Shown piece after piece: positions 22,422 to 37,803 of a stretch of DNA of 64,000 bases. The notes under the pieces are model-generated. The model saw only the letters and a program-made list of their open reading frames with translations, was not told the DNA's origin and ran no database searches. Positions within the stretch are counted from its first letter, which is position 1; the number at the start of each line of letters is the position of its first letter. Position numbers and translations under genes: made by a program. The DNA comes from Candidatus Thorarchaeota archaeon (GTDB taxonomy: Archaea; Asgardarchaeota; Thorarchaeia; Thorarchaeales; Thorarchaeaceae): contig JAWOEX010000028.1 in the NCBI GenBank assembly GCA_046482545.1, forward strand, positions 192,001 through 256,000. Direction: 5' to 3'.

Positions 22422-23393
22422 TCAGCATGTCTCTTCGAGTGTCGTCTGTTCTTGACCGTAGGTTTTCCAAGCCCGAGTGAGAGCCTTAATAGTCCTCTTA
22501 ACCGTTTCTCTCTTTTCAAGTGGAAGAAAATGCCGTTTCAGTTGATTCGGATTCGGGGGTCTCAGTGTGAGGTCAAACATGAATGAATCTATTCTGTCTG
22601 CTTCATAGAAAGTATCTCTCGCCAAGATAAATTCTTTAATCTGTGAGTGAGGAATACCGTTGGCGCGGAGTACATCTTCCAAGCTTCCGTATCGCTTCAA
22701 TTGTGTGGCACCCCTTCGAGGGCCTACATTTCGAAGTCCTTCATGAAAATCACAACCACACAGGATAGCCAAATCTCTCAAGCCCACCAAGTCCAAATCA
22801 AGCTCTTGTTTCAAATCGGATAATCTGGCAGAGGTAATCTTTCCTTTGGAAAAGCTGATGCCCTTGGTAAGATGTGGGGATCCAAAAAGAAGTGTGTCTA
22901 CATCATTGGATAACACAGACCCGGTTCGTCTAGCCCTTGCCAGTGCAGCTGCGGTCATCTCCGCTTCAGAGGATGCAGTAATGGTCGGAACTCCAGATGC
23001 CGCCAACAAATCCTTCAGATGAAAAGACATGAAATACATCGACAAGCTAGGACTTCCGGCAAGAGAAGACGAAATATGATGGTCGAAAGGATCTCTCTTC
23101 TCTAGAAAACGATTGTATAACCGGCGTGCGGAACGCAGAAGGTTGGGATTAGGTGCCCGCTTTAGGGATTCTGGAGGGCCATCAAAGATGAATACTGGTA
23201 GGATGTTATGTTGGAGTAAACCCTCAACCAGCTTGAGGGCAATAGACACGTATGGCATAGGCTTTCTTCCTGTCCCGCCCCGGGCGGCCAAGCGACGCAC
23301 AAAGTAATTTGGAACATCGATTGCTAGGGCTGAGGGCTCAATTTTAATGGCACTTGCAGTGTAGTGAACGAAATCCCAGCCAACTACTCCCAA
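22422..23393 (-). CDS. FEN1/XPG-family 5'-flap endonuclease (divergent paralogue)
   Basis: TTG start at 23393 gives the MGV N-terminus typical of FEN1. Motifs IDVPNY, FIFDG, SEAE, SNDVDTLLFG, ILCGCDF, VGPRRG (H3TH) and a C-terminal QTTL. Confidence 0.85.
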   Translation of the reverse strand: MGVVGWDFVHYTASAIKIEPSALAIDVPNYFVRRLAARGGTGRKPMPYVSIALKLVEGLLQHNILPVFIFDGPPESLKRAPNPNLLRSARRLYNRFLEKRDPFDHHISSSLAGSPSLSMYFMSFHLKDLLAASGVPTITASSEAEMTAAALARARRTGSVLSNDVDTLLFGSPHLTKGISFSKGKITSARLSDLKQELDLDLVGLRDLAILCGCDFHEGLRNVGPRRGATQLKRYGSLEDVLRANGIPHSQIKEFILARDTFYEADRIDSFMFDLTLRPPNPNQLKRHFLPLEKRETVKRTIKALTRAWKTYGQEQTTLEETC

Positions 23394-24100
23394 GAATGAA
23401 ATCCCCCGTATATTGATTCTAATCCACACGGGCTCAAATAAACAACTACCGCTCGTTCGTTTTTGATAAGTGGTGAGAATTGCACCAAGATACGTATTGC
23501 AGAATCAGACACATCTAATTTCTCTATCCGAATCACGGAGTCTACTGCGTGAGCAAGTACATTACCTCCAACAGGTTTCCTTGCACCTTTTGATGAATAC
23601 GCTGTCATCATGAGATGCAGCCCGTGATTGTTGACCTGAGCACGGAGTTTTTCCAAAGAGCTGTAAAGCTTCCGCTGAGTCTTCTTGGTCATGGGCTTTC
23701 CGCTCAGATTCATCACTCCTGTAAGGCTATCAACAATCACAACACGGAAACCATGGGTTCCAGCATGTTCAACCGCTGCTTCCAAATCAGTAAGGGAAAA
23801 AACATTGCCAATTTGAATGTGTTCAAGGGGCCTGTCTGCTTCCATAGTCTCTCCAAACTTCCGCATGAGATTAGGTGAAAATCCAGATCCAGAATCCAAG
23901 TAAAGGGAACGATTATTTGCAACAACCCCTCCAAGAGCAGCGATGTGAGCCATCTCTGTGAGAAGCCCTCGTTCAGGGCCATGAAAAATGCTAATCTGGC
24001 GGTCAACAAACACTGGTCCCACTGTTGAGTCTAGTTGCTCAGGCTTGAGTTCGACCAGCCTATGAAAATCCATGTTAAACTCACTCAGCTGTTTGGCCAT
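23384..24100 (-). CDS. RecA/RadB-like paralogue with degenerate Walker A
   Basis: HGPERGLLT replaces GxxGxGKT; LYLDS, VVIVDSLT and KPVGGNVLAHAVD are RadA-family motifs. Confidence 0.75.
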   Translation of the reverse strand: MAKQLSEFNMDFHRLVELKPEQLDSTVGPVFVDRQISIFHGPERGLLTEMAHIAALGGVVANNRSLYLDSGSGFSPNLMRKFGETMEADRPLEHIQIGNVFSLTDLEAAVEHAGTHGFRVVIVDSLTGVMNLSGKPMTKKTQRKLYSSLEKLRAQVNNHGLHLMMTAYSSKGARKPVGGNVLAHAVDSVIRIEKLDVSDSAIRILVQFSPLIKNERAVVVYLSPCGLESIYGGFHSWE

Positions 24101-25034
24101 CCGCGGTCACGCTCCGAATTATGACTGATACATCCTTTTCAAAAAGTAAAGTCTCTTCTGTGCCTGGTGGCAGGGATTCAAGGTCCATTCCCGGAACCTC
24201 GTTTTCCCGTACTATGACCCTTGGCCCATCCGAAGACGGTAAGATGGTCGTTCTTACCGGCGGGTCTGCCAGGATGCGTGAAAGAGTCGTGTGGTTTGTA
24301 GCGATACGAAAATCCTTTGGATCGATACCCGCAAGGCTTTCAAGGTAAGGCAGAGAGCCAATGAAGTGGCTGACTTCGGGGGATAGCTCAGTGAAATGGT
24401 CAACACCATAACTCCTAACGAGATTTTTGATTCGATTCGGCCAGCCTGCATCGTTTTCGCAGTTCACAATAATTGCGTCTGCCTCCTCGAATCGGACCAA
24501 ACAAACCGGCAATAGTGGTCGTTCCTCGATTAGAGTAATCATCGTCTGGAAATACCTGTGAGAAAGAAGAAACACCTGCCATACGCTACCGGACCTTACA
24601 GAATGATTATCCTCAATTCTTACCATAGTGTTGAGGACAGTACTGAATCCCCTTGACAATACTTTGGCACTTCTCTTTTGACGATGGGGATTTCGCACAG
24701 TGGTACATCCAATCAGGAAGAAGATAACTCCGAGTATAGAAACTAATCCATCAAAAATAAGCAAAGTAAAGCCGATTGCTAAAGCTGAATAGCCAGCCGC
24801 AAATCCGGCTACTGCAGTCACAACAGAACTCACTTTAGATTCAGATACGAAACGATGGTCAAGAACAAGTAATCCAAAGGCAAGGAGTACAAGGAAAAGG
24901 AGAGGAATGACATTCCCAGTTCTTGCGCTGAGTACTATAACGGTGAGAGATGCCAGCAATTTAGTGCCGAATAAAACAGCAACCATTATCACAATCAGCA
25001 GAATTCCTGCATTGCCTATCCACTTACCAATCAT
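24081..25034 (-). CDS. Membrane protein (4 N-terminal TMs plus soluble domain), unknown function
   Basis: Four hydrophobic segments within aa ~8-112; overlaps both neighbours. Confidence 0.75.
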   Translation of the reverse strand: MIGKWIGNAGILLIVIMVAVLFGTKLLASLTVIVLSARTGNVIPLLFLVLLAFGLLVLDHRFVSESKVSSVVTAVAGFAAGYSALAIGFTLLIFDGLVSILGVIFFLIGCTTVRNPHRQKRSAKVLSRGFSTVLNTMVRIEDNHSVRSGSVWQVFLLSHRYFQTMITLIEERPLLPVCLVRFEEADAIIVNCENDAGWPNRIKNLVRSYGVDHFTELSPEVSHFIGSLPYLESLAGIDPKDFRIATNHTTLSRILADPPVRTTILPSSDGPRVIVRENEVPGMDLESLPPGTEETLLFEKDVSVIIRSVTADGQTAE

Positions 25035-36551: not shown

Positions 36552-36997
36552 GCAATCACCCCCATCAAATTGGAAAGTGGATCCCGGATTATGACAAGTC
36601 TCCTGAAGTTCGCCAGTTTCTTGGCTGGAATCAGGACATTATCATCCTGCAAAGAAACTGCTATTCCCGACAGTAGCCTCAATATGGTATCTTTGAGTCC
36701 GGTGGGGACAGGCAACTGAAGACCTGTGTCATCTGTAATCCCACAGGCGCTAGTATATCCGCCAAGTATATCGTAATGTGAACCTTGTACACCAGCAGTC
36801 CCCGGCCATACTGACTCATCTATACCTGCGAGTTCCAATCTGCCTTTCAGGTCTTCAAGAAAAGAAAACCATTCCCATGATTCTTCGGACTGTCTGTCTC
36901 TTGTTATCATGCCTGCCAAGGCCCCTTCCATCCAAGCCCTGTTTGGTGTTGATTCAAGGGACGCTTTAGGCTGCAACAAAGAGCCGGTTGCTAACAT
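36548..36997 (-). CDS. Hypothetical protein, possibly a degenerate LAGLIDADG-fold protein
   Basis: AWMEGALAG and DILGGYTSACG helices; C-terminal ILRLLSGIAVS...LIPAKKLANFRRLVIIRDP resembles the second half of a LAGLIDADG domain (by eye only). Confidence 0.6.
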   Translation of the reverse strand: MLATGSLLQPKASLESTPNRAWMEGALAGMITRDRQSEESWEWFSFLEDLKGRLELAGIDESVWPGTAGVQGSHYDILGGYTSACGITDDTGLQLPVPTGLKDTILRLLSGIAVSLQDDNVLIPAKKLANFRRLVIIRDPLSNLMGVIA

Positions 36998-37803
36998 TAA
37001 GCAACCCCTCCTTCAACAACACCGCTGCTGTATCCAAATACATGCGGCAGAGGCTCAAGATTTCGCAACCATCTCTTCAGTTGCTGTATTCTCTTGCATT
37101 TGAGCTGCTCCCTAGAGAGCACCGAGTTCATCAATGCCCCTGATGCCATTACAATGCGATCGAGAGCCGTAAGCCGCTTTTCATAGGGTAAAGCGGTGTA
37201 CCAAGGCATCGTGAAGAAACCAGATTCACCAGCCAAGAATTCTCGCCAATCAACGAGCCAACCCATTGTAGCCGGGTCTTTATCGACAATATCTAAGAGT
37301 ACACTTGTCCATTCAGCCCACCGATTCATCAGGTGCTTCAGTCGAGACACAATACTCCCAATGGATCCGTCCTCCGATTCAATACCAAGAATCGCTCTCA
37401 CATGTGTATCTTGATGCTGGAAAGCACTCAAAGCGAGCGCCTTTCCTGCTTCAGCAGTCATCAAAATAAATAGTGGAACGAGACCAGGGATGTCACAGGG
37501 CCTGAGCTCAGCCTCTTCATATGGAACAAATCTATCGAAGCCATCTAGAATGTCGCTTCGGAGACCGCATATGAGAAACAGCATTGGTCCTCGAAGAAGA
37601 TATGCTTTCCTGATTGTTCGATCTTTAGAGGTGTACTGTGTGTCGATCACCCTCGTCACATCGGCCATCTCTGTGTCTTCAAGAAGCTCCAGAGCCTGGT
37701 CGAGGTTTTTCTCAAGATTCACCATGTTTATTCCCACATACCTATTGTAAATCGCTAGCCTCAATGTTTCGTTCACCATGTCTACGGTATATGGGCGCTC
37801 CAT
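36997..37803 (-). CDS. Hypothetical protein (268 aa), first gene of the DNA-processing operon
   Basis: Starts 25 nt downstream of element copy 2; TAATG overlap with the next gene. Confidence 0.75.
   Translation of the reverse strand: MERPYTVDMVNETLRLAIYNRYVGINMVNLEKNLDQALELLEDTEMADVTRVIDTQYTSKDRTIRKAYLLRGPMLFLICGLRSDILDGFDRFVPYEEAELRPCDIPGLVPLFILMTAEAGKALALSAFQHQDTHVRAILGIESEDGSIGSIVSRLKHLMNRWAEWTSVLLDIVDKDPATMGWLVDWREFLAGESGFFTMPWYTALPYEKRLTALDRIVMASGALMNSVLSREQLKCKRIQQLKRWLRNLEPLPHVFGYSSGVVEGGVA

Follow-up and report, generated by a model that had tools for sequence, protein, structure and literature searches.

The operon described here lies at positions 22422-37803 of a 64,000-nucleotide stretch of DNA from a Candidatus Thorarchaeota archaeon (GenBank assembly GCA_046482545.1, contig JAWOEX010000028.1, positions 192,001 to 256,000; the whole stretch is called the window below). 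It joins a membrane-anchored VirB4-fold protein with a dead ATPase site to a set of paralogues of recombination enzymes, and it is inherited as a block that one relative has cleanly lost. Our favoured reading, to which we give a probability of about 0.45, is that the operon encodes a chromosomal accessory machine for DNA exchange and recombination, which derives from a type IV secretion motor that was domesticated. The genome (G000) measures 3.05 Mb and is 98.9% complete; labels beginning with G, C and L denote genomes, contigs and loci.

Layout and gene content of the operon

All 15 open reading frames (ORFs) are encoded on the minus strand, in the order first read from the sequence alone. 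Of the 14 gene junctions, 12 overlap by 1 to 46 nt, and the remaining two are gaps of 3 and 37 nt. The genes are as follows.

36997..37803, minus strand: g1, unknown soluble protein, which can persist where g2-g15 are deleted
36548..36997, minus strand: g2, no assigned function, absent or exchanged for an extra degenerate RadA paralogue in some genomes
35517..36551, minus strand: g3, RadA paralogue of full length, its Walker A/B, catalytic Glu and L1/L2 motifs intact, in a cluster-specific RadA group
35083..35520, minus strand: g4, zinc ribbon (two CxxC) and winged helix-turn-helix (wHTH), with homologues within the clusters of other Asgard groups
34465..35079, minus strand: g5, no assigned function, named homologues almost all from Thorarchaeota
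32507..34489, minus strand: g6, paralogue of the XPD/Rad3-type Fe-S helicase, motifs intact
31936..32547, minus strand: g7, two transmembrane (TM) segments and the first half of a split VirB4 N-terminal domain, modelled partner of g9
31667..31939, minus strand: g8, small protein, no assigned function
29353..31629, minus strand: g9, membrane-anchored pseudo-ATPase of VirB4/CedB fold, with the second N-terminal half and a C-terminal winged-helix-like domain
27173..29356, minus strand: g10, Hel308-type helicase with an inserted SWIM module (CxC...CxH), motifs intact
25657..27201, minus strand: g11, alpha/beta domain, TM hairpin and helical bundle (weakly HEPN-like), no family
25031..25660, minus strand: g12, RadB-like P-loop protein, Walker A intact
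24081..25034, minus strand: g13, three to four TM segments and a soluble domain, no family
23384..24100, minus strand: g14, RadB-like, Walker A lysine absent
22422..23429, minus strand: g15, FEN1/XPG-like nuclease paralogue with most acidic active-site motifs kept

Family scans place g3 with RadA, g4 with wHTH proteins, g6 with XPD, g10 with Hel308 plus SWIM, g12 and g14 with RadB-like proteins and g15 with FEN1-like nucleases, as the sequence-only reading had named them. Its LAGLIDADG label for g2 is not backed by Pfam, PHROGs or PDB profile searches, which gave no such match. No Pfam or PHROG family was assigned to g1, g2, g5, g7, g8, g9, g11 or g13. Membrane segments are predicted in g7 (2), g9 (1-2), g11 (2) and g13 (3-4). 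Family members keep the catalytic motifs of g3, g6, g10 and g12 and most of the acidic motifs of g15; g14 is without the Walker A lysine.

A membrane-anchored VirB4 with a dead ATPase site

The membrane core of the operon is a VirB4 fold contributed by g9 together with g7. The predicted model of g9 (mean predicted local distance difference test, pLDDT, 77) matches full-length R388 VirB4 best (E 1e-12), followed by HerA and the VirB4 C-domain, and its nearest Atlas clusters are CedB, VirB4 and DUF87. The HerA/VirB4-like membrane protein proposed earlier is thus borne out in its fold but not as a working ATPase: Walker A reads GGxxxER, Walker B is degenerate, and the Walker A lysine is missing in every clade member seen, from Thorarchaeia to Thermoproteota. 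Judged by these motifs, g9 is a pseudo-ATPase and catalytically dead.

The VirB4 N-terminal domain appears to be divided between g7 and g9. In Lokiarchaeia a single protein of 1260 amino acids (aa) carries two tandem TM-plus-N-domain repeats; g7 fits the first of these better (HH probability 57%) and the N-domain of g9 fits the second (91%). Both also match split N-domain genes of other Asgard groups (96-97%). The g7:g9 pair model scored 0.68, compared with 0.00 for the best control, and the mark applied was reached by 58 of 80 solved pairs and by 2 of 110 mismatched pairs. The modelled contacts agree by at least 77% between runs, with a partner pLDDT of at least 70. This pass may reflect resemblance to solved VirB4, so the model supports the architecture rather than binding in the cell. 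On the model, g7 and g9 would jointly rebuild a membrane-anchored VirB4, and since its ATPase site is dead, such a protein would act as a scaffold or as a regulatory subunit of a ring. The VirB4 N-domain is shared out in the same manner between CedB and CedD, one half in each (10.1101/2024.09.27.615246).

The fused Lokiarchaeia gene belongs to a cassette (L086:6640-14349) made of a helix-hairpin-helix (HhH)-plus-TM protein, two TM proteins, the 1260-aa pseudo-VirB4 and a small protein, placed divergently from Hel308-SWIM.

Operon paralogues and their housekeeping counterparts

Separate housekeeping copies of several operon genes exist elsewhere in the genome. RadA at C14 (473 bits), FEN1 at C23 (431 bits) and XPD at C28 (319 bits) all score above their cut-offs, and a housekeeping RadB also lies on C28. 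The operon RadA, g3, reaches 221 bits, under the equivalog cut-off of 259, and retains its HhH N-domain. The earlier proposal of a divergent second recombination toolkit therefore holds for RadA, XPD, FEN1 and RadB but fails for Hel308: g10 is itself the best Hel308 match in the genome (278 bits), with superfamily 2 (SF2) motifs I, II, III and VI present. It falls far under the full-length Hel308 equivalog cut-offs because its C-terminal half differs through the SWIM insert. The remaining Hel308-type genes are a Walker-dead SWIM paralogue, a divergent paralogue and an ASH-Ski2-like protein; C10:55178 was rejected as the housekeeping Hel308 since it carries the 4-Cys N-domain of ASH-Ski2.

The SWIM paralogue with dead Walker A/B lies at L196:1174-3405 (C32:8673-10904 in this genome). 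Most Thorarchaeia genomes, operon-lacking ones included, hold a second, weaker SWIM-region match. A third, degenerate RadA is found at L068:1590-2630 (C31:8589-9629), near a displaced GH3 gene, and branches within the operon RadA group.

Conservation, loss and chromosomal setting

A profile of g9 found matches in 55 of the 85 other genomes of the family (two of them weak), essentially in single copy. Of the 26 Thorarchaeia loci fetched, the complete ordered set of 15 genes is present in 14; another 11 keep the order as far as their contig extends or apart from a single gene that is lost or replaced, and the last is broken at g4. Such a 15-gene order is far beyond chance, and the conservation of the neighbourhood that the sequence-only reading had left to be checked is real. 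A GH3 gene forms the upstream flank in 13 loci, the sister family included, and c12 the downstream flank in 18.

Conjugative elements typically carry VirB4-like genes, and the block might on that account be an integrated plasmid or virus, or else a chance cluster of housekeeping genes. GC content is uniform, no tRNA occurs in the window, and a PHROG search gave no informative match; no relaxase, coupling protein or integrase is found among the genes annotated in or beside the operon, whose flanks are fixed. The fixed flanks, the flat GC and the lack of a tRNA therefore mark the operon as chromosomal, as had been supposed from the sequence, and a chance housekeeping cluster is at odds with the housekeeping radA, xpd, fen1 and radB genes lying elsewhere. 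Both explanations are exceedingly improbable.

Loss of the operon can also be seen. In G367, g2-g15 are cleanly deleted and the contig reads GH3, g1, c12; in G015, g18 (described below) adjoins c12, and the operon is absent from the stretch read. In G012 the operon is broken at a contig end, and some apparent absences from metagenome-assembled genomes are assembly breaks. Failure to find g9 in four Odin-sized f3 genomes and in G120 is likewise not proof of absence. Because it is collinear in the loci of 25 of 26 relatives and cleanly deleted in one relative, the operon is accessory, dispensable and non-mobile.

Patchy loss would also be expected if the operon were a defence or abortive system directed at mobile elements, with DNA-processing enzymes coupled to a sensor in the membrane. 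The weak HEPN-like bundles, and the HerA-type anti-phage complexes that are also among the g9 fold matches, would fit such a system. However, the operon is single-copy with fixed flanks common even to the sister family, gene trees follow taxonomy for Thorarchaeia and their sister family, and no toxin motif was identified. A defence role is highly unlikely.

The locus is rearranged in this genus. Fragments of the GH3 gene, together with c12 and c37 genes that flank the operon in other genomes, lie at window positions 41650-48248.

Related clusters and downstream genes

Related clusters were found in Freya-, Baldr-, Hel-, Loki- and Heimdallarchaeia and in further families, with varying order and completeness. 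They combine the pseudo-ATPase with Hel308-SWIM, the RadA paralogue, RadB-like and FEN1-like proteins, the Zn-wHTH protein, an M50-like protein and large surface proteins with immunoglobulin (Ig)-like repeats. Cultured Ca. Lokiarchaeum ossiferum (G187, 6,035,313 bp) has the cluster, as do G069, a single contig of 3.08 Mb that matches a Ca. Heimdallarchaeum genome, and G192 (4,324,194 bp), which we take to be P. syntrophicum MK-D1. Methanomethylicia and Thermoprotei keep a core of the N-domain gene, the pseudo-ATPase and RadA; the RadA paralogue thus adjoins the dead ATPase even in Thermoproteota.

Two genes just downstream of g15 probably belong to the system, because they sit within the operon of the sister family and their homologues recur in other clusters: those of g17 in clusters of other Asgard groups, and those of g18 within the cluster or next to it in five further Asgard families.

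21003..21605, minus strand: g17, M50-like membrane peptidase homologue, without the HExxH motif here
13213..21006, minus strand: g18, surface protein of 2597 aa with an alpha/alpha toroid, Ig-like repeats and a C-terminal TM segment

Further cluster neighbours were recorded. A small GTPase and roadblock-like pair (MglAB-like) recurs in Freya- and Lokiarchaeia clusters (L174:5676-6819; also L033, L037, L085, L092 and L177). Membrane proteins of M28-peptidase fold adjoin pseudo-ATPase genes in three Asgard families (L023:10598-13417, L033:15909-18575, L035:14912-17962), one with a weak nicastrin match. The neighbours of the core module in deep Thermoproteota include Nre and CdvA (L062:9304-15601, L066:9198-15598).

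The system might instead export DNA or fuse cells in mating: the Ig-repeat protein would recognise a partner, to which the cell would donate DNA or with which it would fuse, and whole-chromosome segments would be prepared or recombined by the enzymes. This is in keeping with the VirB4 ancestry and with the recurrence of surface proteins, the M50/M28-like peptidase homologue and the MglAB-like pair in the clusters. However, the clusters showed neither a relaxase nor a coupling protein nor a fusogen, and RadA and its mediators work in recipient cells. We consider export or fusion quite unlikely.

A second RadA lineage

RadA trees were built from 57-63 sequences, without eukaryotic rows; the longest rows were omitted from the second tree. 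Of 22 cluster-linked RadAs, from Thermoproteota and several Asgard groups, 21 fall on one side of a branch, separate from housekeeping RadA, with a Shimodaira-Hasegawa-like approximate likelihood ratio test (SH-aLRT) value of 95 (97/78 in the larger tree). The division into cluster and housekeeping RadA takes two changes on the tree, compared with 17.7 when shuffled. Long branches may contribute to this grouping. The trees identify what appears to be a deep second RadA lineage tied to the membrane module. Matsuo et al. reported, without gene context, a second Asgard RadA clade (PMC12722695), which may be that of the cluster RadA.

The sequence-only reading had suggested a bearing on the origin of eukaryotic sexual recombination. 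Against Rad51/Dmc1 models, the housekeeping RadA scores 330-334 bits and g3 173-176, their rates being different, and the Rad51/Dmc1 duplication has been placed after the divergence from sampled Asgards (Matsuo et al., PMC12722695). Because the housekeeping RadA scores closer than g3 and the duplication post-dates that divergence, the link of the operon to meiosis or eukaryotic sex seems weak.

A broader reading than ours is that of an ancient contact-dependent machine for chromosomal DNA exchange and recombination, common to Asgard archaea (Heimdallarchaeia included) and deep Thermoproteota, in which a recombinase lineage of its own, mediators and a HELQ-like helicase would sit on a ring of dead VirB4. 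It would be an archaeal parasexual system in the lineage that gave rise to eukaryotes. We regard this as doubtful.

Possible mechanism and the question of a channel

As a DNA-exchange machine, the operon would work as follows. The dead VirB4 of g7 and g9 would serve as the membrane scaffold or regulatory ring subunit, with energy supplied by an active VirB4 (adjacent in some lineages; C28:82426 in Thorarchaeota), by the two helicases, or by both. Cells would make contact through the large Ig-repeat surface protein or a pilus, and donor DNA would enter through a channel; contact, transport, its direction and the channel are the parts of the scheme that we infer. The RadB-like pair would act as mediators in loading the dedicated RadA at the membrane, joint molecules would be processed by Hel308-SWIM and XPD, and flaps would be trimmed by the FEN1-like nuclease. 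As a result, DNA of another cell would be recombined into the chromosome.

In three contigs the dead ATPase has an active VirB4-like one as its immediate neighbour. In the Thorarchaeota genome the active, TM-anchored ATPase at C28:82426 is CedD-like (62 bits, cut-off 600) and belongs to a block (L108:6503-16146; C28:76502-86145) that also encodes a TFB paralogue, a TadA/VirB11-like ATPase, a pilin-like gene (type IV-like candidate at C28:79469) and a divergent Ig-repeat TM protein. In the 11 relatives fetched the block is kept, within the limits of their contigs and ORF calls, and it echoes TFB3, Ups and Ced (PMC9905601). DprA is also present in the genome.

Several results weigh against DNA exchange. 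The active VirB4 occurs in 80 of 86 Thorarchaeia genomes, operon-less ones included, and is not co-lost, so its partnership with the operon is one that we infer. The CedA model NF041796 has no match in this 98.9% complete genome, where a sequence-divergent structural relative could escape it, and ComEC (PF03772) has none either. No operon protein exceeds about 4-5 TM segments, and TM prediction gives no CedA/TedA-type protein with 6-7 in the operon; a channel is therefore missing from the picture. Finally, the genome holds no separate canonical Hel308, and g10 as its sole clear intact copy fits a general repair role. The membrane apparatus proposed by the sequence-only reading thus resembles Ced in its VirB4 fold and g7:g9 pair, but lacks a CedA/VirB6 or ComEC match. 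In another Asgard family, a 9-TM protein beside a cluster-type RadA and Hel308-SWIM (G135, L188:8861-13963) is a candidate channel.

The main rival is that the operon encodes a membrane-tethered centre for repair or handling of the cell's own chromosome. Intermediates of recombination between copies of the chromosome would then be anchored to the envelope or the septum by the dead VirB4 ring, and DNA would not pass from cell to cell. The missing CedA or ComEC channel and the operon's possession of the genome's main Hel308 favour it, as do the soluble domains of the membrane proteins, which look cytoplasmic from their TM hairpins, and the position of the Thermoproteota module next to Nre and CdvA. 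It leaves unexplained, however, the VirB4 N-domain architecture, the giant surface proteins in the cluster and the clean loss in some genomes. We consider it rather unlikely, and favour the exchange machine.

Comparison with known systems

The closest parallels are Ced (CedA/A1/A2/B, CedD, CedE) and Ted of Thermoproteota, which share a chromosomal membrane-anchored VirB4-fold protein (PMC9905601; 10.1101/2024.09.27.615246), an N-domain divided over two polypeptides and a genomic link to recombination genes. In Thorarchaeota the separate C28 locus, with its TFB paralogue, pilus ATPase, pilin-like gene and CedD-like ATPase, adds to the likeness. In contrast, the VirB4 of the operon is ATP-dead, neither a CedA/VirB6 channel nor a CedA1/TedC (VirB2-like) pilin was identified in the operon, and the operon has its own RadA, two RadB-like proteins, Hel308-SWIM, XPD and FEN1 paralogues and large Ig-repeat surface proteins. 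Small TM genes do occur in other Asgard clusters. The operon resembles Ced in logic, but with CedA missing and the motor dead it is not Ced or Ted.

R388 VirB4/TrwK (PDB 8rtd, 7o43) gives the best full-length structural match to g9. However, g9 has about 13% identity to it, dead Walker motifs, TM anchors, a C-terminal winged-helix-like domain and a split N-domain, and neither further components of the VirB set nor a relaxase were found. Bacterial competence (ComEA/ComEC/ComFA, DprA, RecA, RadA/Sms) likewise couples DNA handling at the membrane to an SF2 helicase and recombinase loading; DprA occurs in this genome, and Lokiarchaeia clusters carry an HhH-plus-TM protein. Its components are not homologous, however, and ComEC is lacking here. 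The Shu complex contains a SWIM module, and such a module likewise accompanies a Hel308-type helicase and RadA/RadB paralogues in the operon. Eukaryotic HELQ with the RAD51 paralogues of BCDX2 offers the same pairing of a Hel308-type helicase with RadA/RadB paralogues (PMC13623763). These eukaryotic complexes are not membrane-bound, and the likeness is one of co-occurring gene types.

Other features of the locus

The true start of g1 is probably near 37725, because its closest homologues are 242 aa long. No promoter motif common to the regions upstream of g1 was found. In salt-lake metatranscriptomes (three runs of one study) the region is covered only by short, shallow contigs, which are unable to show transcription. 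For g11, comparisons with PDB, VIA and Atlas gave no clear fold match; helical-hairpin matches (ESCRT-III and others) were rejected as generic, and homology to the HhH-TM protein of Lokiarchaeia is unsupported (1.4%). Profile comparison did not support g13 as an additional VirB4 N-domain paralogue. A protein of 1140 aa with apolipoprotein-like helical repeats lies at window positions 7615-11037. A short RadA-like paralogue is found upstream of the operon (39280-40008), and near the operon in G002 as well.

Significance

The sequence-only reading did not recognise a described system, and the full-text literature searched, outside of which most subscription papers lie, holds no description of the cluster that we could find. 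No DNA-exchange route in Asgard archaea turned up in that literature. The cluster supplies named genes for possible Asgard DNA exchange, and since it is present in cultured Ca. Lokiarchaeum ossiferum, the question of such exchange becomes testable. A conserved family of ATP-dead VirB4 proteins has also been identified. Should no DNA cross the membrane, a recombination platform anchored there would still be new.

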